Source of the DNA: Thermoplasmata archaeon
GTDB lineage: Archaea; Thermoplasmatota; Thermoplasmata; GCA-020350865
Length of the DNA: 51,417 nt
NCBI GenBank assembly: GCA_036475875.1
Contig: JAZGAR010000073.1
Coordinates: forward strand, 1 to 51,417
Direction: 5' to 3'
Below, piece after piece: positions 20,988 through 38,351 of this stretch; position 1 is the stretch's first letter, and each line of letters begins with the position of its first letter. A model generated the notes under the pieces. The model saw only the letters and a program-made list of their open reading frames with translations, had not been told where the DNA came from and made no database searches. A program made the translations under genes and the position numbers.

Positions 20988-22121
20988 TCACACAGCCTCC
21001 AGTTCCTCCTCCTTGAAAGTCGCAAGCGGCAGCTCCTCATCCAGACTTCTACCTGCCACATAGTCGAACAATTCTTGGACGTCCGCTCCAAGGGCATGGT
21101 AGATGGCCAAAAGAGGCAATTTACTGGGACAGGCGCTCTCACACTGGCCACAGCTCACACAGGATGTGATCATGTGGTTCATTCTCCCAATGTGATACAA
21201 GACAGTATCTAAAGGCATCCTGACAACGCCCCTCTTTTTGCTCTTGTCCATGTACTGTTTCGGTGAGGGTGAGAGCATCTCGGATTCGAAAAAGCATTCC
21301 TTACAGTAGCAGATCGGACAAACATTCATACAGTTGTGACATTTTATACAGCCAGCTAAAACTTTCATGTAACTGGTTATGTCCTTTACTTCATCCTTGA
21401 TCTCTTTGACCAGTTTTTCCCTATTCTCCTTTCTGGCCTTCGCGAGTTCCTCGAGGGCTCCCTCGCGGCCTTTATGTTCTTCCCTTTCAGCCAATTCAAG
21501 GCTCAGAGCACCCAGAAGTTCCTCGCCCTTGGGTGTGTTGGCCCTAAGCAGGATTTCTTTACCTAAATCCAGGCCGATGGTGCAAATCGAGATGTCTGCG
21601 GTATCGATCACTGGAAATTCGCAGATCATGCAGGCGGAACGTAAGTTCACACCCGAAAGCGCTGTCTTACCTTGGCCTCCCGCCTCTTCAAGAAGTTTCG
21701 ACGTTAAACCCTTTCCGGATTTTTTGGCAAGCTCAGTATATTCAGGAACAGGCAAGGTACCGAGACAATCCATTGATACCAAGGTGACATTATCCAAATT
21801 TATCTGGTGGAGTTTTGCAAGCTCGAACACAGCACGCAGTTCACACGGTCTGAACACCGCAACGATCCTATCCTCGGATGCATTGTCCGTAGTTTTTACA
21901 AGTATATCCGCAGAATTGGAGGGTAAAATAAAGGCAAATGGGTTGGCACTAATAACACTCTCCGGGTCCTTTACGAGAGTTTGGACTGTACTCACCCCAG
22001 AAGGTAAATCCTGAGGTACCACCAACGCGTCTGCTGCATTCTTTGCCAGAATACTCTTGAAGAAATCATTCAGGGTAAGCAACACATCTTTTTCCACGTT
22101 CAGTTTGGCAATCTTGGACAT
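20988..22121 (-). CDS. Fe-S oxidoreductase subunit, AsrA / sulfhydrogenase-beta / FrhB-like N-part plus 2x[4Fe-4S]
   Basis: The ORF track gives 20988..22145. ATG 22121 (MSKIAKLN) lies 7 nt after GGAGG. Has an RPCELRAVFELAK segment and a C-terminal CIKCHNCMNVCPICYC ... CVSCGQCESACP. Last gene of hdr operon 2. Confidence 0.6.
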   Translation of the reverse strand: MSKIAKLNVEKDVLLTLNDFFKSILAKNAADALVVPQDLPSGVSTVQTLVKDPESVISANPFAFILPSNSADILVKTTDNASEDRIVAVFRPCELRAVFELAKLHQINLDNVTLVSMDCLGTLPVPEYTELAKKSGKGLTSKLLEEAGGQGKTALSGVNLRSACMICEFPVIDTADISICTIGLDLGKEILLRANTPKGEELLGALSLELAEREEHKGREGALEELAKARKENREKLVKEIKDEVKDITSYMKVLAGCIKCHNCMNVCPICYCKECFFESEMLSPSPKQYMDKSKKRGVVRMPLDTVLYHIGRMNHMITSCVSCGQCESACPSKLPLLAIYHALGADVQELFDYVAGRSLDEELPLATFKEEELEAV

Positions 22122-22132
22122 ATTTTCGCCTC

Positions 22133-22600
22133 CTATATATCCCACTCCTTCTTGAACGGATTAGGTCCCATTGCTTTGGTCTCCTTGACCATCTCATTCA
22201 CGGTGTCTGCAAACTTCTGACCTTCACTGGCACTGATCCATTCCAAGCGCACCCGCCTCTCCTCGAACCCTAAATCTTCGAGCAATTTTTTCATGATAGA
22301 GACTCTTCTTCTCGCCTTGTAATTACCTGAAAGATAATGACAATCCCCAGGATGACAGCCAGCTACCAAAACCGAATCCGCACCTTCCAGCAGGGCTTTT
22401 ATCACGTAGACAGGATCAACCGCACCGGTGCACATGACTCTAATGGGTATGAAGTTCGGGGGATACTGCAGCCTGGAAACTCCAGCAAGATCGGCACCTG
22501 TGTAAGAACACCAGTTGCACAGAAAGCCTATTATCTTCGGCTCGAAATCCCCTTCTTGCCCGGTTGTTTTCGTTTGTTCAGCCTGACTTTCACCTTCCAT
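22133..22600 (-). CDS. mvhD: MvhD-like [2Fe-2S] subunit (stand-alone, no tail)
   Basis: The ORF track starts at GTG 22609. ATG 22600 (MEGESQ) lies 6 nt after GAGGTG. Motifs FLCNWCSYTGADLAG...RVMCTG...AGCHPGDCHY. Confidence 0.9.
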   Translation of the reverse strand: MEGESQAEQTKTTGQEGDFEPKIIGFLCNWCSYTGADLAGVSRLQYPPNFIPIRVMCTGAVDPVYVIKALLEGADSVLVAGCHPGDCHYLSGNYKARRRVSIMKKLLEDLGFEERRVRLEWISASEGQKFADTVNEMVKETKAMGPNPFKKEWDI

Positions 22601-22612: not shown

Positions 22613-24328
22613 TTAACACACCTCATCTATTTGGGCCAGAATCTCCTTATTGGAAAAACCAACCAACTCAGGAACACCACCAGGACAGGCCATGGCACAA
22701 GCGCCGCAGCCCTGGCATGTTGCTAAATCCACATTGCTCACCAATTTGACCTCCTCGGTGATGTGGTTTTTAACGATTTTCATTGAAATAGCTTCATAGG
22801 GACATAGTCCCTCACATAGACTGCAACCCATACATCGTGATTCATCTATTACTGAATGCACGCTCCGCACTTTAAAGCCATTCTTAAGGATGTGGGCCAC
22901 CTCGAAGGCGGATTTTTTAGCATCCGAGATTGACTTCTTAATGCTTCTTGGCCCCTGGACGCAACCGGCAAGGGAAACTCCTCTTCTATCGATGATATCA
23001 TACCTGTCATTATAGTATCCCATGAAGCCATCCACATCCAATGGGAGGTGAACCATCTTGGCGAGTTTTATTGTACCTTTTGCCGCCTCTTGTCCAACAG
23101 CCAGGACAACCAAATCGGATTTAAACGCCATTATTTCGCCGAGTTCAATATGCTCTGTCCTCAAAATCAAGCTCCCTTCGTCCCTCAGAACCTCAGCTAC
23201 CCTGCCTCTAATGAAGTAAACGCCCTTTTTCTGGGCATCCAGATAGTCCTCCTCGAACCCATTATCCGGGCCGCGCAGGTCCATGTAATGGATATACACT
23301 TGTGTTTCTGGACTGAGGGATTTGATCCTTTTCGCCTGTCTGATCGCATAGGTACAGCAAACAAGAGAGCAATGGTGGTTGCCCTTGTTGTCGTCCCTTG
23401 AGCCCACACATTGGATGAAGTTAACGCGCTTGGGAACCTTACCGGTGGACGGAACCTTTATCGCTTTCTTTGCTAGCATCTTCTCCAATTGATAGAAATC
23501 GATGACATCATCGTATTCATATCTGTATTCCGGGATTTTGCTCGCATCGAAAAGGTCAGAGCCGGTGGCGATGATTATTACCCCGACGACCAGCTCTTTA
23601 AGCCCCTCCTTAGTGTTGATACTGACATGATAATCTCCTAAGGTACCAGTAATTTCTTCTACCTCCGATTCCAGCATGATATCCGCATTTATGCTCCCAG
23701 TCAGTTCATCCATATTGGGCAGGGAGAGGTCCTCCTCTTTTAACGCCTCAGGGTCCAGCTCATAGGCCCTTCCACCCAATTTGCTTTCCCTTTCCACCAA
23801 ATGAACATTAAGGCCCTTCTTGACCAGATCCAAGGCCGAAGTTATACCTGCCAAACCACCGCCGATGATCAAAACATCGTTACCGTTGGGCAAGAGAACG
23901 CTTTTATCCTCCACGGAGAATGCAGAAATAACCCTTGCAACACCACCTAGGACCAGGGCTTCGGCCTTATCGGTAGCGGCCCCTTCTTCCCGATGTATCC
24001 AATCACATTGCTCACGGATATTAACATTTTCAATGAGGTACTCGTTGATTCCAGCCTCTATGGCACCTTTTTTAAGGATGTCACCGTACGTCCTTGGAGT
24101 GCATCCCACAATAACCACTCTTTCCACACCGGCTGAGGAGATCTCATCCTTCAGGAACTGCTGTCCCTCTTTTGTGCAGAGTTTATCGTGTCTCTTGACA
24201 AATATCCAATCCGGGCGGTCTTTGAGTCTCTTCTCCAATTCATTCATATCGATGTTTTTTCCAATTGTGTTATCGCAGGTGCAGAGGACGACGCCCAGTT
24301 TCGGTTCCTTTGATTTAACACCCCTCAT
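22613..24328 (-). CDS. hdrA: HdrA-like protein (N-domain + FAD unit + C-terminal ferredoxin)
   Basis: LGVVLCTCDNTIGKNI...VGCTPRTY N-domain, GGGLAG, CVGSRD...CSLVCC, and C-terminal CMGCSLCEGLCP/CQGCGACAMACP. Lacks the DKTFPTNDC motif and the inserted ferredoxin. ATGA overlap with the upstream gene. Confidence 0.9.
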   Translation of the reverse strand: MRGVKSKEPKLGVVLCTCDNTIGKNIDMNELEKRLKDRPDWIFVKRHDKLCTKEGQQFLKDEISSAGVERVVIVGCTPRTYGDILKKGAIEAGINEYLIENVNIREQCDWIHREEGAATDKAEALVLGGVARVISAFSVEDKSVLLPNGNDVLIIGGGLAGITSALDLVKKGLNVHLVERESKLGGRAYELDPEALKEEDLSLPNMDELTGSINADIMLESEVEEITGTLGDYHVSINTKEGLKELVVGVIIIATGSDLFDASKIPEYRYEYDDVIDFYQLEKMLAKKAIKVPSTGKVPKRVNFIQCVGSRDDNKGNHHCSLVCCTYAIRQAKRIKSLSPETQVYIHYMDLRGPDNGFEEDYLDAQKKGVYFIRGRVAEVLRDEGSLILRTEHIELGEIMAFKSDLVVLAVGQEAAKGTIKLAKMVHLPLDVDGFMGYYNDRYDIIDRRGVSLAGCVQGPRSIKKSISDAKKSAFEVAHILKNGFKVRSVHSVIDESRCMGCSLCEGLCPYEAISMKIVKNHITEEVKLVSNVDLATCQGCGACAMACPGGVPELVGFSNKEILAQIDEVC

Positions 24329-25392
24329 TGAGCATCACACCCGTCGAGAAAGTCCATGACCTCTATTGCCGCTCTTTTGGCATCCTCCACAGAATATCTA
24401 ATCCCTTTTGGACCTAAGGCACAGCCTGCCACCGCGATACCTTTAGAACCGTTGTCAGCGATAAAACCATTGGACTGCAGCTCCAATCCCAGCATTTTAG
24501 CGATGTCCTTACAGCCTTTATGCGGCTTTTGTCCCACAACCAATACAACGAGATCACTTTGGATCTCCATCAGTTCATCCGAGTCGAGATTTTCCAATTT
24601 TAAAAGTAATTCACCGTTTGTTTTTTGAACTTCAGCTACCCTGCCTCTTAGAAATCTAACACCTTTCTCCTGGGCATCCTTGTAGAACTCCTCGAAACCC
24701 CGATAGGCAGCCCGAAGATCCATATAGTGAACGTAAACCTCAATATCAGGATATTTCGTTTTCAGCTCCTTTGCCTGTCCTATCGCATATGTGCAGCACA
24801 CCATGGAGCAGTGCTGATTGCCCTTGTTGGAATCCCTGCTCCCGACACATAATATGAAATTCACAACCTTCGGAATATTACCATCTGAAGGTCGCTTCAA
24901 TATGTTGCCCTGGGTTCGCAGCAAAACGATCATCTTTTCCAGTTCAAGGAATGTCATGACATCCTCATATTTGTCGTGACCGTATTCCAGAATTTTATCT
25001 GCATTGAAGGTGGTGGAGCCAGTTGTCACTATTATCGCATCCACGTCGAGACTCATTTTTCCTCCATTCGAGCTTAAATCAACATGAAAATTACCAGGTT
25101 TGCCGGAGATATTCTCCACCTGGGTTTCAAGCATAATCTCAAGATTCTCGTTTAAGAACAGTTCCCCGAACTTGGGCGTGAAGATACACTCTCTGCAGTA
25201 ATCCATGCAGCAGCCGTCAGCCTTGCATTCGTGAGTCATATACGTCCTGCTGAGCTTGTAGGCCCTTCCCCCAAGCTCGGATTCTCTTTCAATAAGATAT
25301 GTATGGACTCCGTTATTAGCAAGGTCTAATGAGGCCTGCATTCCTGCAACGCCGCCTCCAATCACGATCGCTTTGTTTTTACCTTCCATCAT
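24325..25392 (-). CDS. hdrA: minimal HdrA-like flavoprotein (355 aa, no ferredoxin domains)
   Basis: GGGVAG and CVGSRD...CSMVCC. The DKTFPTNDCxMC position is replaced by YMTHECKADGCCMDYCRECIF. ATGA overlaps at both ends. Confidence 0.8.
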   Translation of the reverse strand: MMEGKNKAIVIGGGVAGMQASLDLANNGVHTYLIERESELGGRAYKLSRTYMTHECKADGCCMDYCRECIFTPKFGELFLNENLEIMLETQVENISGKPGNFHVDLSSNGGKMSLDVDAIIVTTGSTTFNADKILEYGHDKYEDVMTFLELEKMIVLLRTQGNILKRPSDGNIPKVVNFILCVGSRDSNKGNQHCSMVCCTYAIGQAKELKTKYPDIEVYVHYMDLRAAYRGFEEFYKDAQEKGVRFLRGRVAEVQKTNGELLLKLENLDSDELMEIQSDLVVLVVGQKPHKGCKDIAKMLGLELQSNGFIADNGSKGIAVAGCALGPKGIRYSVEDAKRAAIEVMDFLDGCDAQ

Positions 25393-28300
25393 GCAGCCTC
25401 CAAGGCTTTATCGACCATGGCCATCAGCTGACTCGGTTCGAATTGTCGTAAATATGGTACGTTGGATGGGCATATGCTCGAGCATGCACCACAGCCCATG
25501 CACAGAACTTCGTTCACCTCTGCAACACCGGTTTCCTCATTGACCTTTATCGCCTCATATGGACAATTTACTTGACACAATCCACAACCTGTACATCTCT
25601 CTTCATCCACAACTGCGGCCACACCTTCTGTCAATAACTGCTCTTTGGAGAGTATGGTCAAGGCTCTCGCTGCTGTTCCGCTTGCCTGGGATATGGCCTC
25701 ATCCATGAACTTTGGAGAGTGGCACCCACCGCACAAGAATACACCGGCTACGGCAAATTCCACCGGTTTGATCTTCAAGTGAGATTCCATGAAGAAATTG
25801 TCCTTTGTCAGGGGCACCTTGAGCACCTTGGCAAGTTGCTCGTTCTCTGGAGAGGGAAGATATGAAGAGCTTAAAACCACATAATCAGGTCGAATAACGA
25901 TATGTTTCTTGATATTGGGATTGTAAACCGTAACCTTTAGGTTCTCATTCTCTTTTTCCACCACAGGCTTTCGTTCCTTCTCATACCTGATGAACACCAC
26001 CCCTTTCGATCTTGCCTCTCTGTAAAACTTCTCTTTAAGACCGTAGGTTCGTACATCCCTGTATAGTACATATACATTAGCATTCGGTTTCAATTCCTTT
26101 ATCTTAAGAGCGTTCTTTACTGCCATTGAGCAGCATATCCTGCTACAATATTCCCTTCCTTCCTCTCTCGATCCTGTACATTGAATCATTACAACGTTGT
26201 TCTCGGAGTGGCCCTTCTCGTGAAGTTTTTTCTCGAACTCTAATTGGGTCATCACTCTGGGGTCCTCACCGTACATATATAAGCCCTTCGGCTTGAGCTC
26301 AGTTGCACCTGTGGCAACGATGATCGTGCCAACATTCAAATCCTTCTTTTCACCACCATGAGATATTGTAGCTGTGAAGTTTCCAATGTAACCCCCCACA
26401 TTCTGCACAGACGAGCTGGGGAACACCTCTATGTTGGGATTGCTATCTATCCGCTCCAAAAATGCCTTCAATTCTATTTGCGGGTCGTCATCTGTTAATA
26501 GGTAATAGACATTATTCAAATTACCTCCAAGCTTCTTTTCTTTTTCGACGATATAGGCCTTGAAACCTTTGTCTGCCAGGTCCAAAGCCGCTGTCATACC
26601 TGCAATCCCTCCGCCGATGATCAGGGCTGAATTTGTACAATCCACAGGGGACTTGTGAACCACCTTATTTCTCATCACCTTCTCAACCGCCATTGCCACC
26701 AGGTGTTTGGCTTTTTCAGTGGCCTTTTCAGGATCGTTTTTGTGCACCCAGGAGCAATGTTCCCTCGTACTTGTCAAATCGAAGAGATACTCGTTCAAAC
26801 CCATCTCCTTAATGGTTTTTTGGAATAAAGGTTCGTGGGTGCGAGGAGTGCAAGAGGCCACAACAACCCTGTTCAGATTATGCTCTTTGATGGCGTCTTT
26901 TATCTTGTCTTGGGAGGCCTGTGAGCAGATATAGAGGTCCTCATCGGCATGAACCACATTCGGTAATGTTTTGGAGAATTCCACGAGCCCAGGCACGTCC
27001 ACAACCGAGCCGATGTTTACACCACAGTGACAGGAGAAAACCCCTATTCTGGGCTCCTCCCCTATCTCTATTTCCTGGGCCCCTTCCTCCTTTCGACCTT
27101 CATACATTGGAACAAAATCCATGGCTTTCGATGCGGCTCCCGAAGCTTGAGCAACTGAGTCCGGTATGTCCTTCGGGGATTCGACGCTCCCACCAACATA
27201 GATTCCAGACCTGGAAGTCTCTTGGGGTGTGAAATATCCTGTATCGCAAAATCCATATTCGTCCAAATCCACACCCAACATTTCGGCAAGTTCTTTCCAA
27301 TCCTTGTGTGGCTCCATTGCCATGGCTAAAATCACGAGGTCAAAGATCTCCTCCTTTAACTCCCAGTTCTCATCTCTATAGATGATCTTCAGGTTCTTGG
27401 TTTCTGGGATTTCTTCTATGTGGGGAATCCTGCATCTCACATAATTCACACCGTATTCGTCCTTGGCCTTGTTATAATACTCCTCCCCACCCTTGCCGAA
27501 GGTTCGTAGGTCCATATAGAAAATTGTGGTATCGATGTCAGGTTCATGGTCCTTGGCGATGATCGCCTCCTTTGTAGCGTATCTGCAACACACGGCAGAA
27601 CAGTACGGTTTGCCTTTCTGCTCATCCCTTGAGCCGACACATTGTATCCAAGCGATTCTCTTAGGGGTCGTGCGGTCTTTTGGACGAAGAACCTTACCAG
27701 CGAAAGGGCCGGAAGCGCTGAGAACGCGCTCGAATTCAAGTGAAGTTAGAACATTATCGTACCTGCCGTAACCGTATTCCGACTTGATCTTTGGGTCTAC
27801 CGGGGTAAAACCAGATGAAACGATTATAGCACCCACGTCGATCTCTTTAATCTCGTCCTCTTGGTCGTATTCGATCGCTTTAGCCTCACAGAACTCGCTG
27901 CATGTCTTACAATTTCCAGTTTGATAATATATACATTTATCCTTATCAATTACCGGTATCAGCGGTATTGCCTGGGGGTATGGAATATAAACTGGCTTTC
28001 TCTGTGTCAATTCTCTATCGAATTCCGAAAGTATGGGAATGGGTTTATTACCACTGATACGCTCCACCTTTTTCTGTGTGAATCTCGATGTAGGGCATAT
28101 GAAGGCACAGGCTCCACAGGTCATACAAACATCGGATAACTCCAGGTATGGTGTACCAAGCTCCCGATCTATCCCGCGACCCTGAAAATTGATTGCCTCC
28201 CTTCCCATTCGTTCACACATTCTTACACAGAGGCCGCAGAGAATGCAGTTGTCATCCTTTTTCTTGAACCGCAGTTCGCCCACGCCGTATTCTTTGGCTA

Positions 28301-28613
28301 GATCGATTAATACCTCTTCTTCTGGGCTCCTGGCCAGTAATAGTTCAATGGTCATCTTCCGGCTCTTTTGCACATCCTCGGAATCGGTCAGTACTCTCAT
28401 TCCATCCTTCACTGGTAATGTACAAGCAGTAACCAGTAAAGACCACCCGTCCTTCAATATTTCAACTATGCATAGACGACAGGCCCCGTAGTTGGGAAGG
28501 GCTTTTTGATGGCATAAGGTGGGTATTTTGATTTTATTATCATTTGCAACCTCTAAAACCGTCTTTCCCTTTTCGGTCTCGAAGATTGTACCATTGATTT
28601 CTATTTTAACCAT
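25389..28613 (-). CDS. NuoG/HydA-N-terminal-like [2Fe-2S]/[4Fe-4S] module fused to an N-terminally truncated HdrA unit plus a complete HdrA unit (1074 aa)
   Basis: N-terminus: MVKIEINGT...CHQKALPNYGACRLCIVEI, CILCGLCVRMC, CMTCGACAFICP. It then enters HdrA at PVYIPYPQAIPLIPVID with no preceding GGGxxG, followed by CVGSRD...CSAVCC. Next come the N-domain IGVFSCHCGVNIGS...ASCTPRTHE, GGGIAG, CTGSRE...CSRICC, and CTGCGLCQVNCP/CMGCGACSSICP. Confidence 0.88.
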   Translation of the reverse strand: MVKIEINGTIFETEKGKTVLEVANDNKIKIPTLCHQKALPNYGACRLCIVEILKDGWSLLVTACTLPVKDGMRVLTDSEDVQKSRKMTIELLLARSPEEEVLIDLAKEYGVGELRFKKKDDNCILCGLCVRMCERMGREAINFQGRGIDRELGTPYLELSDVCMTCGACAFICPTSRFTQKKVERISGNKPIPILSEFDRELTQRKPVYIPYPQAIPLIPVIDKDKCIYYQTGNCKTCSEFCEAKAIEYDQEDEIKEIDVGAIIVSSGFTPVDPKIKSEYGYGRYDNVLTSLEFERVLSASGPFAGKVLRPKDRTTPKRIAWIQCVGSRDEQKGKPYCSAVCCRYATKEAIIAKDHEPDIDTTIFYMDLRTFGKGGEEYYNKAKDEYGVNYVRCRIPHIEEIPETKNLKIIYRDENWELKEEIFDLVILAMAMEPHKDWKELAEMLGVDLDEYGFCDTGYFTPQETSRSGIYVGGSVESPKDIPDSVAQASGAASKAMDFVPMYEGRKEEGAQEIEIGEEPRIGVFSCHCGVNIGSVVDVPGLVEFSKTLPNVVHADEDLYICSQASQDKIKDAIKEHNLNRVVVASCTPRTHEPLFQKTIKEMGLNEYLFDLTSTREHCSWVHKNDPEKATEKAKHLVAMAVEKVMRNKVVHKSPVDCTNSALIIGGGIAGMTAALDLADKGFKAYIVEKEKKLGGNLNNVYYLLTDDDPQIELKAFLERIDSNPNIEVFPSSSVQNVGGYIGNFTATISHGGEKKDLNVGTIIVATGATELKPKGLYMYGEDPRVMTQLEFEKKLHEKGHSENNVVMIQCTGSREEGREYCSRICCSMAVKNALKIKELKPNANVYVLYRDVRTYGLKEKFYREARSKGVVFIRYEKERKPVVEKENENLKVTVYNPNIKKHIVIRPDYVVLSSSYLPSPENEQLAKVLKVPLTKDNFFMESHLKIKPVEFAVAGVFLCGGCHSPKFMDEAISQASGTAARALTILSKEQLLTEGVAAVVDEERCTGCGLCQVNCPYEAIKVNEETGVAEVNEVLCMGCGACSSICPSNVPYLRQFEPSQLMAMVDKALEAA

Positions 28614-28615
28614 TT

Positions 28616-30484
28616 TCAGCCCCCTCCTGTTTTAACATCGACGGCATTGAACTTGCATACCTCAATGCATATTCCGCAGGTGGTGCATATATCATAATCT
28701 ATGATGTGTGGCTGCTTCTTTTCCCCTGATATGGCTTCAACCGGACACTTTTTGAAACAAAGATGGCATCCATTACATTTTTCAGGATCTATCTCATAGG
28801 ATATGAGGGCCTTACAAACCTTGGCTGGACACGCCTTTTCCAGCACATGAGCCTTGTACTCGTCTTCAAAATATTTCATAGTCGTTATGACCGGGTTGGG
28901 GGCAGTTTTTCCAAGACCGCAAAGCGATGTGCTCATTATATATTCACTCAGTTCTTCAAGCAGTGCAAGAGAGTTCTCATCGCCCTTGCCCTCAACGATG
29001 TCATCCAATATTTCCAGCATTCGAGCGGTGCCCTCTCTGCATGAAGTGCATTTACCACAGGATTCGTCGAGATTGAAAGCAGTGAAATATCTGGCAACAT
29101 CCACCATGCATGTATCCTCGTCCATCACGATCATCCCGCCCGAACCCATCATGGACCCTACCCGCTTCAATTCGTCAAAATCAATGGGGATGTCGAGTAG
29201 GGGTTCCGGAATGCAACCACCGGAAGGACCCCCTGTTTGTACAGCTTTAAAGCGCCTATCATTGGGAATACCGCCACCGATATCAAATACAATTTCTCTG
29301 ATGGCCATACCCATGGGTATCTCAACCAGACCAGTATTTCTTACTTTTCCAACGAGAGAGAATATTTTGGTGCCTTTGCTTTTTTCTGTCCCGATATTGG
29401 CAAACCACTCAGCTCCTTTGTTGAAGATCAATGGAACATTTGCCCATGTTTCAACATTGTTTATCACTGTTGGGTACCCCCATAGGCCGCTTTCAGTGGC
29501 ATGTATGTGCTTTGCCTTCGGCTCACCTACCTTCCCTTCGATGGACTGGATCAGGGCGGATGATTCTCCGCATACGAATGCTCCTCCACCCTTGTAAACC
29601 AAGATGTCAAAATCAAAACCAGATCCCAGTATATTCTTCCCCAAAAGACCAAGTTCTCTTGCCTGATTTAAAGCGGTTGAAAACACATCGACAGCTATGG
29701 GATATTCGGATCGTACATATATGTAACCATAATTGGCACCCACTGCATAGGCACCGATGATCATACCTTCTATAACACTGTGGGGGTTGCCTTCCAACAA
29801 ATTCCTATCCATATAGGCCCCAGGATCGCCTTCATCGGCATTGCATATGATGTATCTTTTCTCTGCTGCGACGTTTTTAGTGGATTCCCATTTTCGTCCG
29901 GTGGGAAACCCTCCACCTCCCCTACCTCTTAGACCAGATCGCTTTACCACATCGACGATCTCGTCGGGATTCATGGAAAACAGCGACTTTCCCAATGCGC
30001 TGTAGCCACCTATCCGGATATAATCCTGGATTTCCTTCTGATCTATCTCAATATTGTCTATGAGCAAATTCCTCAATTGCTTTTCATAAAACGGTAATTC
30101 GTTTTCATATGTGACCTTATTTCCTGATACAGGATCAACATAAAGAAGCCGTTTTACAGGCTTTCCTGATTCCAAGGTTTCAGACATAATCTCCTCAACA
30201 TCATCTGGTACCACGTTTTTGTAAAGTATGCCAGGAAATCCTTTAAGTCGAATTACGACGATGGGCTCAATTTCGCAAAGACCCAGGCAGCCTGATACCC
30301 TCACTTTGGACTTATCAGTCATTCCCCTCTTTGCAAGGCTATCCGAAAAAGCATCTATTACACCCTGACTACCCTGTGCCTCCCCGCAGGTTCCCGATGC
30401 GATAATAACTAACGGTTTTTCCGGTTCCGCATTTAACTTCTCCCTCAAATCGTCCAGGGACTGTGTATTTGTCAACCTCTCCAT
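28616..30484 (-). CDS. NuoF/HydB-like NAD(H)- and FMN-binding subunit with N-terminal thioredoxin-like domain and C-terminal 2x[4Fe-4S]
   Basis: GLRGRGGGGFPTGRKW (FMN/NADH site), CNADEGDPGAY, ESCGKCTSCREG (N3-type cluster), and C-terminal CNGCHLCFKKCP/CTTCGICIEVC. Confidence 0.9.
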   Translation of the reverse strand: MERLTNTQSLDDLREKLNAEPEKPLVIIASGTCGEAQGSQGVIDAFSDSLAKRGMTDKSKVRVSGCLGLCEIEPIVVIRLKGFPGILYKNVVPDDVEEIMSETLESGKPVKRLLYVDPVSGNKVTYENELPFYEKQLRNLLIDNIEIDQKEIQDYIRIGGYSALGKSLFSMNPDEIVDVVKRSGLRGRGGGGFPTGRKWESTKNVAAEKRYIICNADEGDPGAYMDRNLLEGNPHSVIEGMIIGAYAVGANYGYIYVRSEYPIAVDVFSTALNQARELGLLGKNILGSGFDFDILVYKGGGAFVCGESSALIQSIEGKVGEPKAKHIHATESGLWGYPTVINNVETWANVPLIFNKGAEWFANIGTEKSKGTKIFSLVGKVRNTGLVEIPMGMAIREIVFDIGGGIPNDRRFKAVQTGGPSGGCIPEPLLDIPIDFDELKRVGSMMGSGGMIVMDEDTCMVDVARYFTAFNLDESCGKCTSCREGTARMLEILDDIVEGKGDENSLALLEELSEYIMSTSLCGLGKTAPNPVITTMKYFEDEYKAHVLEKACPAKVCKALISYEIDPEKCNGCHLCFKKCPVEAISGEKKQPHIIDYDICTTCGICIEVCKFNAVDVKTGGG

Positions 30485-31393
30485 TTACGCATCCCCCAAT
30501 GAAGAGAGGATCTTATCCACCTCGTCAAAGTTCAAATTCCCGTGAAACTCCTCATTTATCATCATAACTGGACCGATGGCGCAGGTACCAAGACAGTTCA
30601 CGGTTTCAAGCGAAAGCAGCCCTTCCTCCGCCTCGGATACCCTTTCCCGAATTCTATCGACGACCCTCCTTGCGCCTCTGACATGGCAGGCAGTGCCCAG
30701 GCAGACCTTTATGTGGAACTTCCCTCTCAACTCGAGACTGAATGCTTTATAGAAAGTGGCCAATCTGTAAATGTAACTCAGAGGGATATCGAGCTTAAAT
30801 GTTAGATATCCCAATACATCCTTTGGAAGATACCTATAATGATCATTCACATCCAACATAATTTGAATCAAGGGACCATCAAGATGGGAATATCTTTCAA
30901 CTAGAGAATCGAGGTATTCCCTGTCTCGAACCTTTGGAGCCTCCTTGGGCTTCTCAGGTATCTGCGGTTGTAGGTTTATTGGACAATTCTCTATGCAAAC
31001 TCCGCATCCTGTACATTTGGATTCATCTATTGATCGGGCTCTCTTTTTCAAGGTGACCTTAAAATTGCCTGCCTCCCCCTCAACAGCCACCAGTTCAGAA
31101 TGTGTAAGGAGTTCTATGTTTGAATGTCCACCAACACCCACGAGTTTAGGTGATAGGGTACACATGGCGCAATCATTCGTTGGAAAGGTTTTGTCAAGCT
31201 GAGACATTCTCCCCCCCAACGACGGAGTTTTTTCGAGTAGATACACCTTCCTTCCCGAATCCGCCATATCCAATGAAGCTTGAATACCGCTTATCCCCCC
31301 GCCTATAACGAGAACACCTTTCTGATTCACATCCCCCGAAGATTCTTCATGATCGTGTTCATGAGTTTCGGTTGTTGTATCCACATCATCCAT
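30485..31393 (-). CDS. HdrA N-terminal FAD-binding fragment fused to a NuoE-like [2Fe-2S] domain (302 aa)
   Basis: GVLVIGGGISGIQASLD...DKTFPTNDCAMCTLSPKLV...GNFKVTL...CTGCGVCIENCP, then a NuoE-type segment (YRLATFYKAFSL...KVCLGTACHVRGA...VNCLGTCAIGPVMMI). Confidence 0.88.
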   Translation of the reverse strand: MDDVDTTTETHEHDHEESSGDVNQKGVLVIGGGISGIQASLDMADSGRKVYLLEKTPSLGGRMSQLDKTFPTNDCAMCTLSPKLVGVGGHSNIELLTHSELVAVEGEAGNFKVTLKKRARSIDESKCTGCGVCIENCPINLQPQIPEKPKEAPKVRDREYLDSLVERYSHLDGPLIQIMLDVNDHYRYLPKDVLGYLTFKLDIPLSYIYRLATFYKAFSLELRGKFHIKVCLGTACHVRGARRVVDRIRERVSEAEEGLLSLETVNCLGTCAIGPVMMINEEFHGNLNFDEVDKILSSLGDA

Positions 31394-31411: not shown

Positions 31412-32284
31412 CTATTTGCCCCCATTTGATTCTAAAAACAACTTTCCGATCTTCTTTCTCATCCCCAATTCCTTGGGGCCGTAACCCATAGCAAGCCCCA
31501 GAATTTGTGGTGTGAATACCACTGGCATTTTGAAATCGATATTGATGTTAGGATCCTTTTGATACTCGCTGTACATGACCATACAAAACGGACAGTGCAC
31601 GGTCATAGCATCAGCCTTGGCCTCATGTACATGTATCAGTTTGTCCCTGACCATTTTTACCGATGTTTCCTCGTTGACAGCGAGTATAGCACCTCCGCAG
31701 CACTGTTTCATGTTCTCGTATTTTATTGAGATTGCGCCGGTAAGATCCACGAGGTCGTCGACAGTATGCGGAATTATGGGATCCTCGAAATCATCGAAGA
31801 TCTCAGGAGGTTTGAGATAATGGCAGCCGTAATGGGGGGCAATTCGTAATGGATTCAACTTGGTGGTGAAGGTCTCTTTTATTTTATCTAGGCCAACCTC
31901 CTCATATATGAATCGAAGGAAATGCCTAACTTCCAATTTCCCTTGAAATTCCTTACCAATGGCATTTTTTAAGATCTTGTTGATATGTTTACGCTCTTTT
32001 TCATCTTCTTTCAGTAATTTATTCACTTTGGTCAATGTGCCAGTGCATGAGTTGCAAACGCTTATAACATAATCCACGCCCATCTCCTCCGCAGCAACGA
32101 GGTTCTGGGCCGCAAGAGCGAGAAAGGTGGTGTGATCCTTTGGCCCTGCAGGATAACCGCAGCACACGAAATCATCCGAGTCGAGAAGCTCTATGCCCAA
32201 CTTTTCAGCCACCCGTCTTACTGCTGCATCGTACTCAAAGACCCTAAGTGCAACATTGCATCCAAGAAAATATGCAGCTTTCAT
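31412..32284 (-). CDS. hdrB: heterodisulfide reductase subunit B-like, copy 2
   Basis: MKAAYFLGC...DFVCCGYP and KQCCGGA CCG motifs. 290 aa. TAATG overlap with hdrC copy 2. Confidence 0.9.
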   Translation of the reverse strand: MKAAYFLGCNVALRVFEYDAAVRRVAEKLGIELLDSDDFVCCGYPAGPKDHTTFLALAAQNLVAAEEMGVDYVISVCNSCTGTLTKVNKLLKEDEKERKHINKILKNAIGKEFQGKLEVRHFLRFIYEEVGLDKIKETFTTKLNPLRIAPHYGCHYLKPPEIFDDFEDPIIPHTVDDLVDLTGAISIKYENMKQCCGGAILAVNEETSVKMVRDKLIHVHEAKADAMTVHCPFCMVMYSEYQKDPNINIDFKMPVVFTPQILGLAMGYGPKELGMRKKIGKLFLESNGGK

Positions 32285-32829
32285 TACTTATCTTCACTCC
32301 CCTCTTCCAATATCCCAGTTTCTTTTATGATCTTCCTTATCCGTTCCGGGTTTTCCTTTATCGGAGGACATTTCAATTTCTCCCTTTGCTGGTTCTCGAA
32401 TTCCGACAATTCGGTGGTTCTTCCGGTCTTATTCATTGCCTCGACGCCCATTTGATAGGAAAAATGCAGGTGGCCCTCTCTGGCCGCGATGTTCTGGATC
32501 GCAGCTATGACCTTCGTGGTCTGTACATTCTGCGGACATCTCACATAACAGCTATAACACGTGGAGCAGAGCCAAATCGCATCCGAGGACAGTACCTCCG
32601 ATCTTAGGCCCAATAGTGACATCCAGATTATTCTTCGTGGATCATATTCAGGGTTCTTTGCAGCAACAGGACACACCGATACACATGTCCCGCATTGAAA
32701 ACAGTAGAGAATGTTCTCTCCACCCGGCTCCTTTGCTATCTCGAACTTGAAGTTCGGGTCGAGCTCGGCCAATTCGATATTTTCAACTTTCTTGTTTGTT
32801 TTCTCATTTGTCGTTTCTGTATCGGCCAT
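32284..32829 (-). CDS. hdrC: heterodisulfide reductase subunit C-like, copy 2
   Basis: CFQCGTCVSVCP and CSTCYSCYVRCP. 181 aa. Confidence 0.9.
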   Translation of the reverse strand: MADTETTNEKTNKKVENIELAELDPNFKFEIAKEPGGENILYCFQCGTCVSVCPVAAKNPEYDPRRIIWMSLLGLRSEVLSSDAIWLCSTCYSCYVRCPQNVQTTKVIAAIQNIAAREGHLHFSYQMGVEAMNKTGRTTELSEFENQQREKLKCPPIKENPERIRKIIKETGILEEGSEDK

Positions 32830-33093: not shown

Positions 33094-34635
33094 CTAAAAG
33101 CACACCTTCCTCATCACCTTCTCGATCAGATCAGTCCTAAGCTCGGTCTTGTTCTCGAACTCACCTACCAAAGCTTTCTTTTCCTTTCCAAGTTCATAGC
33201 AGGTTTGATCGTCAATATCCACCAACACACCTGGAAGGCCTATTCGCTCGAAATCCTCAAGATGCTTGACATAGAAAGCCTCGCAGCAACTGCCCACAAA
33301 TGCCTTCGCTCCATTATCCTTATATTTCAAAAGGGTCTCCAATAGGTCATCAAAATCCAGTATGGTCACCACCTCTATTCCGTTCTTTTCTGCGAATTCA
33401 TAGCAGTCACCAACGTTACAATCCTCGCATTTTATGCACTCCTTTTTATGCCGGTATTCGCACCCAGGTAATTTGGCGCAGTAAGGAAGAAGGAGAACCG
33501 AACATTTTGGCATGTCCTTCAAGGAACTGTTTACAGTGAATATGCGATTCGCTTCATGCGATTGTATTCCAAGTTCGTGGTAATCCATTTTCTCAAGGGC
33601 TTTGAACAGCACCTTTACGAAATCCTTTGGCTCGACACCTGGTATCTGGGGTTTTTTCTCGGCAAAAAAATCAAGGATTAGGTTTTCAATTTGGAGATTA
33701 TCCGCTGGTGTATCCTTCATTTTCGCCTCCAAATCTAGAATGGTCCTCTTTGGGTAGGCAAAAAAATCACCTGTGATCAGAACACTGTGTATGCGGTTCG
33801 ATTTTGCATCCGCAACCAGAGATGCCCTGATGAGCCCCCCAGGAGCTTTGTGCACTGCCCTCAATTCCTGCCTGTTCTTCAAGGGCCTGCGAAGACCAAA
33901 AACCCAACCCTTCGATTTAAAGTAAGGAAGTCTTTTTTTAAGAAGTTCATTCTCTAATTTGGTAAGTTTCCCCTCCTCAAATGTTACCTCAAATACTTCT
34001 TCGAATCCTTCTTTCAGCGCATTTTTCATCTCAACAAGTTCCGGGACATACCCGAGTTCCCATGATAGGCAAGTTACCCTTTCCTTGACCGATTCGATCT
34101 CCTTGTCCTTAAGCTTCTCTATTGGAATACGGAGAGCCCTGAGCATGGTGTCAACATCGAAGTCCGTGAGCAATGTACCTTGAAAAAGAAATGTCCCGCC
34201 CTCTAACGCACCTCCAGTCCCAGAGATCTTCCGCCCCTCAACCTCAATATCGTTCTTAGGCCTGAAAGCCGCATTCACTCCCAACTTTTTCAACCCAATG
34301 ATCGCACCCTCGCATAACTTTTCATAGAGCTCCTCCACCCTATTCGGGATCTTCGGATGTTCCTTGGAGGCGAAAATCTCCCACCCCAACTGCGGTTTGT
34401 CGAAGTAGAGGGCTCCACCGCCAGTGATACGCCTGTTGATGTCTATTCCTCTTTCTTTGCAAAACCGCACCCTTATTTCCTGCTCAACGCTTTGATGGTA
34501 TCCCACAAGAACGCTGTTTGGAGAAAATTGAAGAAAGCGAAGTGTGTTCGGTATATTGCCCTCACTTTTCGCCTTGAGTATGCACTCGTCTAGAGCCATG
34601 TTCTCTGCCGCAGAGCGAACACCTGTGTCCACCAA
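33094..34635 (-). CDS. lplA: lipoate-protein ligase (LplA N- and C-domains) fused to a Cys-rich DUF116-like C-terminal domain
   Basis: NMALDECIL, RRITGGGALYFD, GRKISGTGG (adenylate-binding Lys) and LITGDFF (LplA C-domain). The last ~150 aa reads CSVLLLPYCAKLPGCEY...CIKCEDCNVGDC...AFVGSCCEAF...DDQTC. The track start is TTG 34635; see the finding on a possible upstream ATC start at 34653. Confidence 0.85.
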   Translation of the reverse strand: MVDTGVRSAAENMALDECILKAKSEGNIPNTLRFLQFSPNSVLVGYHQSVEQEIRVRFCKERGIDINRRITGGGALYFDKPQLGWEIFASKEHPKIPNRVEELYEKLCEGAIIGLKKLGVNAAFRPKNDIEVEGRKISGTGGALEGGTFLFQGTLLTDFDVDTMLRALRIPIEKLKDKEIESVKERVTCLSWELGYVPELVEMKNALKEGFEEVFEVTFEEGKLTKLENELLKKRLPYFKSKGWVFGLRRPLKNRQELRAVHKAPGGLIRASLVADAKSNRIHSVLITGDFFAYPKRTILDLEAKMKDTPADNLQIENLILDFFAEKKPQIPGVEPKDFVKVLFKALEKMDYHELGIQSHEANRIFTVNSSLKDMPKCSVLLLPYCAKLPGCEYRHKKECIKCEDCNVGDCYEFAEKNGIEVVTILDFDDLLETLLKYKDNGAKAFVGSCCEAFYVKHLEDFERIGLPGVLVDIDDQTCYELGKEKKALVGEFENKTELRTDLIEKVMRKVCF

Positions 34636-34750
34636 TCTCCATTTTTCTATGATTTCACCGTCCTTTTTATGACAACGCAGGGGTAGAATCCCCCTCAGTT
34701 ACGACGAAAGTGAAGGAAGAACACGAAAAGGTGAAAATCATCTCCCCAAA

Positions 34751-35788
34751 TCATGATGAGTAATCCAAGAGCTGCTCCTTTATCATCTCGATATCGTTCT
34801 CCTCGGGCAAAAATGGAAAGTTCCTTATGGGACGGGAGGGCCTCTCGTTGCCGTAAGGGCGGTTGCATGCCACCTTTTTGTCTCTACCTGGGCAACCAGA
34901 AGTCATGAATGCCTCCCCCATCTCTATAATTTCTTTAACATCCATACCAAAATCTATTATCTGGCCTTTTTTGTTAAGTCTCATGTTTCTGTTGGAGCCC
35001 AGGCCCTCATTGATGATGTATCTTGCCAGTTGTATTCTTCTGTATGAACCATAAGTGGGTTGCTTATTCCCTTGTATTTTGCTCCCTTGCTCCGGGTAGA
35101 AGGAAAACAGATGGGTTTTTGCACCCATATCCTCAGCCCTCTGAATCGTCTTTATAAATTCCTTCTCGGTCTCACCAAGACCCACGATGAGATGTACTCC
35201 CACATTGCCTGGCTCAAATATTTCTGTGGACCATTTCACAACATCCCAGTAATGATCCCATTTGTGCGGACCGTTGACACCTTTGCCCCTGTGTTCGTCA
35301 AATAACTCGGATGTGACGGCATCGATTGCGATGCCCACCATGTCTGCACCTGAGTCCTTGATTTTTTCGATGGTCTCTTTGTTCCTTATCATAGTCGGTG
35401 AGATCAAACCGGAAATGAGCAGATCTGTTTCATCCTTGAACTTGGTCATGACGGTGCACATGTCTTCCAATGCTCTCGGATGCGTTATCATGGATACACA
35501 TACCCTCTGAAGATGCTTTCCGTTTTCATTTGTCCTTTTAATAACCTCATCCAGGGGATAAGAAGGCCAGTCTACCCTGATAAAGGTCCTATCCTCCGGT
35601 TCCACAACCCTTGCCTTTGACAAACCGCAATAGCTGCATCTCGCCTTACAACCATCCTCATAGGTCAAGAGCAGGTTCAAGGCATTCAATCTTGCACCCC
35701 TGTAAAATCTCCCGGGCAGGATTTTCATGGTCATAGCGGCAGCGGTACTGGTTTGAACGTACTCAGGACTGTTCTTTGTCATATTCAT
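34751..35788 (-). CDS. radical SAM enzyme, BioB/LipS-like (candidate lipoyl synthase component)
   Basis: CKARCSYCGL (CX3CX2C) near the N-terminus of a 345-aa TIM-barrel-sized protein. Its start overlaps the end of the GcvH-like gene by 26 nt, and it sits between that carrier gene and the ligase gene. Confidence 0.75.
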   Translation of the reverse strand: MNMTKNSPEYVQTSTAAAMTMKILPGRFYRGARLNALNLLLTYEDGCKARCSYCGLSKARVVEPEDRTFIRVDWPSYPLDEVIKRTNENGKHLQRVCVSMITHPRALEDMCTVMTKFKDETDLLISGLISPTMIRNKETIEKIKDSGADMVGIAIDAVTSELFDEHRGKGVNGPHKWDHYWDVVKWSTEIFEPGNVGVHLIVGLGETEKEFIKTIQRAEDMGAKTHLFSFYPEQGSKIQGNKQPTYGSYRRIQLARYIINEGLGSNRNMRLNKKGQIIDFGMDVKEIIEMGEAFMTSGCPGRDKKVACNRPYGNERPSRPIRNFPFLPEENDIEMIKEQLLDYSS

Positions 35789-36245
35789 CCAACCTTTTTA
35801 GCTCCTCCTCAATCCATTTTCTAATGCTCTCTTCCCCATCGAGAATATCATCCGATTGAAGATCCTTTTCGATATCAGTGGGTTTGATTTCCACAATCCA
35901 GGCATTGTAAGGGTCTTTGTTGATTCTGATGGGGTCATTCACCACTTCCTCGTTTATATTGAGAACCTCCCCATCTAAAGGGGAATAGAACTTGCTCACG
36001 AACTTCGCTGATTCGAAGCTCCCGATGGCTTCGCCTTGCCTGAATTCTTTGTTGTCTATTGTGAGATAGCTTAAGTAACCTGCGTTCTCGGTTAGAAATG
36101 AGTCCATTCCGATCTTGACTTTGCCACCATCCTCTTTCAGCCAGATATGGTTTCCGCTCTTCTTGTAGTATCTTCTGTCCAAGGGGAATTTCAGGTTTTC
36201 TATCTCTATCACTGCAATCCCTCCAACATCATTCAAGGCGATCAT
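35763..36245 (-). CDS. GcvH-like lipoyl-carrier protein 3 (canonical ES-A-K motif)
   Basis: NHIWLKEDGGKVKIGMDSF...GSFESAKFVSKFYSPLDGEVLNINEEV..DP..INKDPYNAW. 160 aa. Confidence 0.85.
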   Translation of the reverse strand: MIALNDVGGIAVIEIENLKFPLDRRYYKKSGNHIWLKEDGGKVKIGMDSFLTENAGYLSYLTIDNKEFRQGEAIGSFESAKFVSKFYSPLDGEVLNINEEVVNDPIRINKDPYNAWIVEIKPTDIEKDLQSDDILDGEESIRKWIEEELKRLDEYDKEQS

Positions 36246-36442: not shown

Positions 36443-37303
36443 TCATTTCTGGCGGTATATTGCTTTCCAATCCCTTTCATGACAAACACAATTTTCACCA
36501 TGATCATGGGTTCTTTTGGGTTTACTCCTTCTCTTTTCAGAAATAGTTATTTTTCCTGGCCCCTCACCTTTTATGCAATTCAAACAGCTTTGAACGTCCG
36601 GTTTATTCAACCACAATTTCATCTTTGGGGGTTTCATCATGTCAAGGTAATGTGAATCGGATGAAGAGATTATGTTCAGATCTCTGTCCTTTAAGAATTC
36701 TACCCGCATATTATCAATTTTTTTAATATCACCGACCTCCACCGCATCGATCTTTAATTCGGGGGGCAGATAACCCAGCTGAGATATCAAACTGAATCCT
36801 CTATCAATGTGGGCGGCCACCGCAATTCCTTTGAAGTCATGTATTCTATCAACCAGTTCATTCACTGATAATGTCAATGGCATCGAGAGCATGTCCTCCT
36901 CTTCTCCAATAACATCACCTGACCTATGAATCTTGATCTGATTGCCAAATATTGACGGATCGTTTTTCTTCCCTGGCCTCAATCCAGATTTTACTATGGT
37001 CGAACAAAATGTATTCAATGCCTGGATGTCGGGAAAATAACCTAGAAGATGTACCTCTTCCAAGCTCTGCAGCTCGATTGCGGGTATGAACAAGATGTCC
37101 CTCTCCAAAGAAGCTACCTCAAACGCACTGCAATTGAAACCCGAATTATGGTCTGTGATTGAAAATACATCTATACCCAAACTGATGATCTTTTTCAAGA
37201 CCTCCTTCGGAGTCATTCTATTTTCGGCACAAGGCGAGAGCGCAGAGTGGACATGTAAGTCTCCTGAAAAAGGAAGCAACCTATCAGAAGTTTTGGGGTT
37301 CAT
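36443..37303 (-). CDS. PHP-domain phosphoesterase
   Basis: DLHVHSALSPCA...SITDHNS...AAHIDR...SSSDSH metal-binding His/Asp pattern. ATGA overlap with the upstream DRTGG gene. Confidence 0.8.
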   Translation of the reverse strand: MNPKTSDRLLPFSGDLHVHSALSPCAENRMTPKEVLKKIISLGIDVFSITDHNSGFNCSAFEVASLERDILFIPAIELQSLEEVHLLGYFPDIQALNTFCSTIVKSGLRPGKKNDPSIFGNQIKIHRSGDVIGEEEDMLSMPLTLSVNELVDRIHDFKGIAVAAHIDRGFSLISQLGYLPPELKIDAVEVGDIKKIDNMRVEFLKDRDLNIISSSDSHYLDMMKPPKMKLWLNKPDVQSCLNCIKGEGPGKITISEKRRSKPKRTHDHGENCVCHERDWKAIYRQK

Positions 37304-38347: not shown

Positions 38348-38351
38348 AGCC

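Follow-up and report, generated by a model that had tools for sequence, protein, structure and literature searches.

Anaerobes depend centrally on flavin-based electron bifurcation for conserving energy, and how its modules are combined is an active question. A locus in a Thermoplasmata archaeon (GenBank assembly GCA_036475875.1, contig JAZGAR010000073.1) raises this question in an unusual form: genes related to the subunits NuoE, NuoF and NuoG lie among pieces of hdrA. Do these pieces make up one HdrA flavin unit, and how would the modules then be connected? The stretch analysed, positions 1 to 51,417 of the contig, is called the window, and all coordinates refer to this 51,417-nucleotide sequence. 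On the sequence, the operon in question is best explained as a hybrid that joins an HdrABC-type heterodisulfide reductase to a HydBC/Bfu-type NADH-ferredoxin module, and since the Bfu genes sit inside an hdrA gene, the two modules would be interlocked. The split-gene block lies on the minus strand, where an initial annotation had located three central open reading frames (ORFs), all of which were present:

30485..31393, minus strand: 302-amino-acid fusion gene, HdrA N-terminal fragment plus a BfuC/HydC/NuoE-like subunit
30968..31321, minus strand: HdrA N-terminal fragment, residues 25-142 of the 302-amino-acid protein, aligning to 5ODC_A 145-261
30497..30922, minus strand: BfuC/HydC/NuoE-like domain, residues 158-299 of the 302-amino-acid protein (Pfam 2Fe-2S_thioredx, expect value (E) 1.3e-35)
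28616..30484, minus strand: 622-amino-acid BfuB/HydB-type subunit, from end-to-end alignment to PDB chains and Pfam domains
25389..28613, minus strand: 1074-amino-acid fusion gene, BfuA head plus HdrA C-terminal half plus a second HdrA unit
28044..28613, minus strand: BfuA/NuoG-N-like head, residues 1-190 of the 1074-amino-acid protein (9mqx_A alignment, Foldseek)
27093..28043, minus strand: HdrA C-terminal half of the split unit, residues 191-507 of the 1074-amino-acid protein, aligning to HdrA 257-569
25392..27059, minus strand: second HdrA unit of the 1074-amino-acid protein, aligning to 5ODC_A 2-234 and 499-646, with GGGIAG (Pfam positions 663-703)

The TAA stop codon of the 302-amino-acid gene abuts the ATG of the 622-amino-acid gene, which itself ends in TGA two nucleotides ahead of the ATG of the 1074-amino-acid gene, and each of the three start codons is closely preceded by a purine-rich stretch. 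The stored gene call for the first gene (P0072) gives only 169 amino acids; it starts inside the first ferredoxin motif and misses the whole HdrA fragment. The long ORF of 302 amino acids is backed by homologs of 280-302 amino acids.

Two fusion proteins carry complementary halves of one HdrA unit

Comparison with all PDB sequences aligned residues 25-142 of the 302-amino-acid protein to residues 145-261 of HdrA from M. thermolithotrophicus (5ODC_A, E 1e-45). This fragment contains a GGGISG beta-alpha-beta element, the sequence DKTFPTNDC75AMC78, whose two cysteines correspond to HdrA Cys194 and Cys197 in the same alignment, and the cluster motif CxxCxxCxxxCP at C127, C130, C133 and C137. It is followed, as the initial annotation had proposed, by a NuoE-like domain: residues 158-299 align to the HydC/NuoE subunits 7p5h_C and 9mqx_C, the top structural matches are HydC/BfuC chains from bifurcating enzymes (7p5h_C, 9mqx_C, 8a6t_C), and the cysteines of its [2Fe-2S] site (C231, C236, C267, C271) are invariant in homologs.

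The 1074-amino-acid protein begins with a NuoG-like head and then re-enters HdrA, again as first described. Residues 4-176 align to residues 7-181 of the short BfuA of a tungsten aldehyde oxidoreductase Bfu enzyme (9mqx_A, E 2.5e-37). The head carries ligands for a [2Fe-2S] cluster (C34/45/48/64) and two [4Fe-4S] clusters (C123/126/129/133 and C163/166/169/173), all 12 of them invariant or nearly so in 113 sequences, and lacks the His-ligated cluster. Residues 191-507 align to HdrA 257-569 and include the second ferredoxin motif (C227/235/238/242), the cluster of the thioredoxin-reductase-like (TrxR) domain (C325/338/342/343), K348 and a GD motif (G470...D482); a second HdrA unit occupies residues 519-1074. 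The counterpart of K348 in 5ODC_A is residue 409, which we take to be the conserved lysine at the flavin. The split unit has no N-domain, and its equivalent of Cys197 is C78 on the 302-amino-acid protein. No GxGxxG or DKTFPTNDC motif was found upstream of residue 191, in agreement with the initial annotation, and the stretch from the BfuA head to the point of re-entry is only 14 residues long, which leaves no space for a hidden dinucleotide-binding beta-alpha-beta.

The two alignments meet at HdrA residue 257-261 or thereabouts, just past the first CxxCxxCxxxCP of the inserted ferredoxin domain. Thus, the HdrA flavin unit is indeed divided, but the break does not fall in the Rossmann beta-alpha-beta, where it had originally been placed; it lies within the inserted ferredoxin domain, itself a natural excursion from the fold. 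As a consequence, the two chains would have to share the FAD (flavin adenine dinucleotide) fold, the two-cluster ferredoxin domain and probably a third cluster. The thioredoxin-reductase-like FAD fold of HdrA is accounted for only by both chains jointly, with GGGISG on the 302-amino-acid protein and the GD motif on the 1074-amino-acid protein, and the eight cysteines of the inserted 2x[4Fe-4S] ferredoxin domain are distributed four per chain, all invariant.

An intact tandem HdrA encoded elsewhere in the window (3286-6333) provided a direct comparison. It is 66% identical to residues 34-138 of the 302-amino-acid protein and 63% identical to residues 163-1071 of the 1074-amino-acid protein, the latter in a single continuous alignment. 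This collinearity indicates that the split pair is a paralog of an unsplit tandem HdrA, with BfuC, BfuB and BfuA placed inside. The PFPQAVP sequence of the intact paralog, which had been put at about 150 residues past GGGxxG, is actually about 120-135 residues past it. Taken together, the matching HdrA ranges (145-261 and 257-569), the intact paralog, the co-occurring fusion genes and the invariant ligands on both chains support the proposal that the two pieces are complementary halves of one FAD-domain unit, as sequence comparison suggests.

Structure prediction was in line with these assignments. The AlphaFold model of residues 1-521 of the 1074-amino-acid protein had a mean predicted local distance difference test score (pLDDT) of 88.9 and a predicted template modelling score (pTM) of 0.75, and Foldseek matched it only to 9mqx_A (root-mean-square deviation (rmsd) 1.4 A, 180 columns) and to HdrA-type chains. 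When the 302-amino-acid protein was modelled alone, its NuoE domain reached a pLDDT of 85-95, whereas the HdrA fragment, at 53-84 in loops, was the least confident part. The isolated fragment deviated from HdrA by an rmsd of 7.8 A over 116 columns, a non-native geometry, compared with 1.4-3 A for the other domains, and so was not predicted to take the HdrA fold on its own. This poor solo modelling lends weak support to a fold that would be completed across the chains.

The gene and domains between the two halves make up a predicted Bfu module

The gene between the two HdrA pieces had been called NuoF-like. It does lie between them, but its product is a full-length BfuB/HydB rather than a complex I NuoF: residues 26-615 align end to end to residues 8-594 of 7t2r_B (E 9e-227), and likewise to 9mqx_B, 8a6t_B, 7q4v_B and 9n5u_B, whereas complex I NuoF aligns only over the core, about residues 150-550. 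The protein comprises an N-terminal thioredoxin-like [2Fe-2S] domain, a flavin mononucleotide (FMN)/NADH core, an NADH_4Fe-4S domain and a C-terminal 2x[4Fe-4S] domain. By sequence, the HydC-like part, the 622-amino-acid protein and the BfuA-like part are predicted to form a complete Bfu (HydABC-type) module. It would belong to 'type 2', whose BfuA has no His-ligated cluster (PMC9304861).

The split arrangement recurs in many phyla

The architecture of the 302-amino-acid fusion was found in at least 120 database clusters, and the fusion of BfuA to the C-terminal half of HdrA in at least 120 further clusters. A scan of species-representative genomes yielded about 30 loci with the fused N-terminal fragment, from taxa that include Thermoplasmata, Altiarchaeales, Fibrobacterota, Spirochaetia, Desulfobacterota, Acidobacteriota, Latescibacterota, Melioribacter (Ignavibacteriota-like), Cloacimonadota and Stahlbacteria; the closest was a Thermoplasmata locus with 67% identity. 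Aminicenantes and Planctomycetota were also among the lineages with the split form, and looking up encoding contigs gave an example from Victivallales. Every locus that was long enough had the order HdrA(N)-BfuC, BfuB, BfuA-HdrA(C)-HdrA2 and the same breakpoint. The two loci without the last gene are on contigs that end inside a block of genes for DRTGG, CBS-ATPase and PHP proteins, which in other loci lies between bfuB and the bfuA-hdrA gene. That about 30 species genomes share one gene order and one breakpoint places the arrangement far beyond chance. Among 1.84 billion representatives searched, about a dozen 50%-identity clusters clearly spanned both halves, the E-value in this search being unable to tell fusion proteins from ordinary HdrA. 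The split-fusion family is widespread but not huge.

Conservation was assessed in 16 paired loci, 102 homologs of the 302-amino-acid protein and 113 sequences for the 1074-amino-acid protein. Invariant or nearly invariant positions included the eight shared ferredoxin cysteines, C75 and C78, the cysteines of BfuC, BfuA and the TrxR cluster, K348 and the GD motif. The 102 homologs share only about 50% identity, yet keep GxGxxG, DKTFPTNDC..C and the first ferredoxin motif. Near relatives from other samples are 83-98% identical and full-length, at 300 and 302 amino acids.

The gene context is also partly conserved. In most split loci mvhD directly follows the gene resembling that of the 1074-amino-acid protein, homologs of HdrC and HdrB adjoin the split genes in many related loci, and in several a FrhB-like gene comes after mvhD. 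The same scan recovered unsplit clusters resembling BamDEFGHI, whose BfuB is 55-58% identical to that of the window. In a rough neighbour-joining tree these Bam-like BfuB sequences nest among the split-type ones; as the tree has neither support values nor an outgroup, it speaks for close kinship of the two forms and not for which came first.

Several loci depart from the common form. In four Desulfobacterota loci (L009, L029, L017, L052) the ORF of the N-terminal fragment is interrupted by an in-frame stop about 60 codons in. In L009 (9980-10960) and L029 (9980-10930) this early stop is a TGA at the position equivalent to C78 and Cys197, where it probably serves as a selenocysteine codon. In these two loci a stop before nuoE leaves the N-terminal fragment free-standing as an ORF of about 130 amino acids, a three-way split; if translation is continued past the early stop, L009 and L017 likewise yield about 130 amino acids. 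A selenocysteine codon in a stand-alone ORF indicates that the fragment is kept for a function of its own and is not a remnant of the fusion. A second variant occurs in two Euryarchaeota/Thermoplasmata metagenome-assembled genomes (MAGs; L004, L005), in which a single, non-tandem HdrA that has both its N-domain and its C-terminal ferredoxin domain encloses the Bfu genes, with the break at the same point; the proteins are of 422, 622 and 607 amino acids in L004, with counterparts of 417 and 590 amino acids in L005, and in L004 a hybrid-cluster (prismane) protein gene follows the split genes. Genes for DRTGG, CBS-histidine-kinase-like ATPase and PHP proteins stand between bfuB and bfuA-hdrA at L013:13288-15425 and L026:3061-6220, and near the operon in the window, as in relatives, are a PHP gene (36443-37303) and a CBS gene (38319-39314). 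These proteins may be regulators of the module.

Relation to known bifurcating complexes

That Bfu and HdrA modules can occur in one complex is already known from class II benzoyl-CoA reductase (BCRII) of Geobacter metallireducens, Bam[(BC)2DEFGHI]2, the subject of a 2026 cryo-electron microscopy (cryo-EM) preprint (bioRxiv 10.64898/2026.04.10.717634), and this combination of bifurcation modules had been predicted earlier (PMC9304861). The idea that the operon merges two bifurcation architectures is therefore reasonable but not unprecedented, BCRII doing so with separate subunits. In BCRII, BamGHI is a HydBC-type confurcating input, from which electrons pass from BamI by way of the C-terminal ferredoxin domain on to the MvhD-like BamF; BamE is a fused HdrA dimer in which a bifurcating FAD, a CxxC and an inserted ferredoxin domain occur in the N-terminal TrxR unit only, and its CxxC pair hands on the low-potential electron, first to cluster E3 and from there to the inserted ferredoxin domain (bioRxiv 10.64898/2026.04.10.717634). 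A conserved lysine near N5 is called a hallmark of the bifurcating FAD (bioRxiv 10.64898/2026.04.10.717634).

The window's operon resembles BCRII in its parts, which are brought together there in one complex as a Bfu module (BamGHI), a tandem HdrA (BamE), MvhD (BamF) and the HdrBC-like BamD. It differs in that BamG, BamI and BamE are separate intact chains, whereas the HdrA pieces of the window are fused to BfuC and BfuA; in having separate HdrB and HdrC instead of the HdrD-like BamD; and in the inserted ferredoxin domain, which feeds BamC in BCRII but is the attachment point of the Bfu module in the window. No Pfam match to the aldehyde oxidoreductase family, to which the BamB-type tungsten enzyme belongs, was found among the 29 window ORFs scanned, a set that takes in every same-strand ORF of 150 amino acids or more except three. 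An unsplit Bam-like cluster from Desulfosarcina (L042) encodes an HdrD-like protein, a tandem HdrA with selenocysteine, MvhD, NuoE, NuoF and a short NuoG.

With the MvhAGD-HdrABC and Fdh-Hdr complexes of methanogens (5ODC, 7BKB, 8RVU) the operon shares the HdrA fold, its cofactor motifs, HdrB, HdrC and MvhD. Methanogen HdrA is a single chain that forms a homodimer and delivers low-potential electrons to free ferredoxin, and in HdrA Cys197 of the partner subunit completes a cluster (PMC9012536). In contrast, the HdrA of the window is a tandem pseudo-dimer with one unit spread over two chains and the Bfu module at the ferredoxin site. A parallel to this position is offered by the 'type III' HdrA of Bathyarchaeota and HdrA9-11 of ANME-1, in which an NfnB/GltD-like insertion in the inserted ferredoxin domain has been proposed to repurpose the ferredoxin-reducing site (PMC9012536; PMC12054007). 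There, too, this ferredoxin domain has received a second flavin module linked to NAD(P)H, but as one domain of about 470-500 amino acids inside one polypeptide, just before motif 2, whereas the window has three Bfu subunits, which come directly behind motif 1 and physically interrupt the HdrA chain. The type III architecture was also seen in a bacterium: a Dehalococcoidales MAG (L046:9998-12724) encodes a 908-amino-acid HdrA unit with a GltD/NfnB-like insertion of about 470 amino acids, immediately downstream of separate nuoE-nuoF-nuoG(N) (bfuCBA) genes.

A short BfuA with one [2Fe-2S] cluster, two [4Fe-4S] clusters and no His-ligated cluster, together with a full BfuB and BfuC, is likewise present in type 2 Bfu enzymes (Wor-Bfu, 9MQX; F420-, Bam- and FdhH2-Bfu, BfuB clade 45), but none of the described Bfu types joins BfuA and BfuC to the halves of a different flavoprotein, and an 'Hdr-Bfu' type is not listed among the Bfu types in PMC9304861. 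FlxABCD-HdrABC is similar as an NADH-linked Hdr of non-methanogens, but differs in having an intact HdrA and in lacking an FMN subunit of the NuoF/BfuB type. Flx-like genes (for MvhD, a FrhB-like protein, Fer4_22 and NAD_binding_1/DHODB proteins) come after the split genes in L001 and L003.

We found no description in the open-access literature of a split HdrA fused to NuoE and NuoG, and no NCBIfam model covers either fusion, all matches being under cut-off. The split-fusion form is thus apparently an undescribed variant of the two-bifurcation-module design solved for BCRII. It may be regarded as a natural 'Rosetta stone', which would require Bfu and HdrA to form one obligate complex and would mark the inserted ferredoxin domain of HdrA as the attachment point. 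In many uncultured lineages these proteins are now annotated as an unrelated 'NADH oxidoreductase subunit E' and 'FAD-dependent oxidoreductase', or are miscalled; public names such as 'NAD(P)H-dependent oxidoreductase subunit E', '(2Fe-2S)-binding protein' and 'FAD-dependent oxidoreductase' hide their kinship. Recognition of the fusions would alter metabolic reconstructions that currently read a stand-alone NuoEF and an ordinary HdrA, and the operon offers a compact system for testing the coupling between two bifurcation sites.

Electron path through the combined complex

The sequences show a tandem 'type II', BamE-like HdrA interrupted within its inserted ferredoxin domain, immediately past the first cluster motif; of the two pieces, the upstream one is joined to the N-terminus of BfuC and the downstream one to the C-terminus of a short BfuA. 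The two fusion chains would then co-fold and build the FAD site together, cysteines from both would ligate one two-cluster ferredoxin domain, and C78, like Cys197, would complete the cluster of the second unit's N-domain. Co-folding of this kind would leave the Bfu module unable to dissociate from HdrA. Because the split unit alone has a CxxC (C75/C78) and an inserted ferredoxin domain, its flavin would be the bifurcating FAD, by analogy to that of TrxR1 in BamE. Two bifurcation sites in series would link the disulfide/dithiol couple of HdrBC to the NAD(H) and ferredoxin of BfuBC, with MvhD and the FrhB-like protein as a further entry or exit for electrons.

We favour, at about even odds, a path in which the BfuA cluster chain connects straight to the inserted ferredoxin domain and takes the place of free ferredoxin there. 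It is suggested by both tethers, which leave the inserted ferredoxin domain, HdrA's low-potential, ferredoxin-reducing exit, and by the precedent of GltD/NfnB insertions into the same domain. The fuller scheme, in which Bfu is plugged into the low-potential arm of HdrA, a widespread two-stage cascade runs opposite to BCRII (HdrA FAD, then Bfu FMN, or reverse confurcation), each ferredoxin cluster is ligated from two chains and the HdrBC substrate could be the lipoyl disulfide of a GcvH-like protein, strikes us as unlikely to hold in every part. Several observations speak against the wiring and assembly that we propose. The linkers are about 17-20 residues per side, so covalent position is no proof of proximity for electron transfer. 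In the solved relative BCRII, Bfu feeds HdrA via the C-terminal ferredoxin domain and MvhD and not via the inserted domain (bioRxiv 10.64898/2026.04.10.717634), and the mvhD gene is conserved at split loci too. The second HdrA unit also retains the flavin lysine, making the assignment of the bifurcating FAD uncertain, and no thermodynamically compelling net reaction could be derived from redox potentials for either direction or wiring. BLAST and NCBIfam align BfuA motif B (C163-C173) with the HdrA ferredoxin motif. A pairing of motif B with HdrA motif 2, in place of the first motif of the 302-amino-acid protein, was rejected as less likely, since motif B is needed in the ferredoxin domain of BfuA, which fits 9mqx_A at 1.4 A, and since the motif on the 302-amino-acid protein is invariant and would otherwise be without a partner.

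The fusions could alternatively be a scaffold only, with wiring as in BCRII: BfuBC would confurcate NADH and reduced ferredoxin, electrons would run from BfuA through the C-terminal ferredoxin domain of the second unit and MvhD to the split FAD, and the inserted ferredoxin domain would stay a low-potential exit to an external acceptor. The cryo-EM path in BCRII (I3 to E1/E2 to F1 to the bifurcating FAD, with output at E5/E6), the position of mvhD directly after the 1074-type gene in most split loci and the nesting of the Bam-like BfuB in the rough tree all favour such a route. It would leave unexplained, however, that both covalent tethers emerge from the inserted and not the C-terminal ferredoxin domain; the FrhB-like protein and MvhD already have the look of an input module of their own; and with HdrBC as high-potential and ferredoxin as low-potential acceptor, ferredoxin would be consumed and regenerated, which is pointless unless there is a very-low-potential acceptor. 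We regard this wiring as a serious possibility but lean towards doubting it. Far less probable is that the N-terminal fragment is an evolutionary remnant or works alone, with a C-terminal half that binds no FAD and no domain shared between the chains. AlphaFold does predict the fragment's beta-alpha-beta with moderate confidence in the absence of its partner, but GxGxxG, DKTFPTNDC..C and the four motif-1 cysteines are invariant or nearly so over 102 homologs, the selenocysteine codon is maintained where the fragment persists as a separate ORF, and the C-terminal half retains its flavin lysine, GD motif and cluster cysteines. In addition, the fragment of about 117 residues has none of the C-terminal FAD-binding elements of the fold. 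Flavoproteins with two dinucleotide-binding domains require such elements for their FAD fold. An assembly, frameshift or gene-calling artefact that broke a single hdrA gene has in its favour the stored call shortened to 169 amino acids, but about 2.8 kb of intact Bfu coding sequence separates the halves and identical architecture appears in independent assemblies from many phyla. The full-length relatives of 300 and 302 amino acids (83-98% identical) in other samples, the recurring loci and the synteny in L085 and L086 refute this explanation, to which we give practically no credence.

Neighbouring genes of the operon and other Hdr genes

The three central genes are flanked within the minus-strand block by further genes of the Hdr type:

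32284..32829, minus strand: hdrC-like, 181 amino acids, two [4Fe-4S] motifs (Pfam Fer4_8/Fer4_9/Fer4_17), the operon's first gene
31412..32284, minus strand: hdrB-like, 290 amino acids, two CCG domains (Pfam CCG x2, E 1.6e-26), both motifs visible in the translation
24325..25392, minus strand: HdrA-like protein of 355 amino acids, TrxR only (Pfam Pyr_redox_2), syntenic in L085/L086
22613..24328, minus strand: HdrA-like protein of 571 amino acids with N-domain, TrxR and C-terminal ferredoxin domain (Pfam), syntenic in L085/L086
22133..22609, minus strand: MvhD-like adaptor, 158 amino acids (Pfam FlpD, 9e-55)
20988..22145, minus strand: FrhB/FdhB-like iron-sulfur flavoprotein, 385 amino acids (Pfam FrhB_FdhB_C and Fer4), the block's last gene

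The hdrB-like product (31412..32284) is the presumed site of disulfide reduction. The genes for the 355- and 571-amino-acid proteins (22613-25392) resemble a further tandem HdrA divided at the boundary of its two units, and the 355-amino-acid protein contains the Cys-rich stretch CKADGCCMDYCREC.

Upstream of hdrC, a minus-strand block (33094-36245) encodes a GcvH-like lipoyl carrier of 160 amino acids with an ESAK lipoyl-lysine motif (35763-36245), a radical-SAM protein of 345 amino acids and a lipoate-protein ligase fused to DUF116 (513 amino acids). This GcvH-like/radical-SAM/LplA-DUF116 block is syntenic in L085/L086, with relatives that are 83% identical, and in a Desulfatiglandales genome, too, the split genes have a GcvH-like gene just upstream (L009:9404-9784). 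The GcvH-like neighbour of the window's hdrC resembles the association of sHdr sulfur-oxidising systems with lipoate-binding proteins, and by this analogy a lipoyl disulfide could be the substrate of HdrBC. A second, stand-alone lipoate-protein ligase of 318 amino acids (40021-40977) is encoded a few kb from the LplA-DUF116 fusion.

If each unit of a tandem protein is counted, about ten HdrA-type flavin units are encoded in the window. A second Hdr cluster on the minus strand (3286-15716) comprises hdrC, hdrB, a 1357-amino-acid tandem HdrA-MvhD, a 1003-amino-acid tandem HdrA, a 296-amino-acid MvhD-domain protein and a 1015-amino-acid tandem HdrA. On the plus strand (592-3239), a GlcD/D-lactate-dehydrogenase-like FAD oxidase of 500 amino acids is followed by an HdrD-like Fer4 and CCG protein of 384 amino acids.

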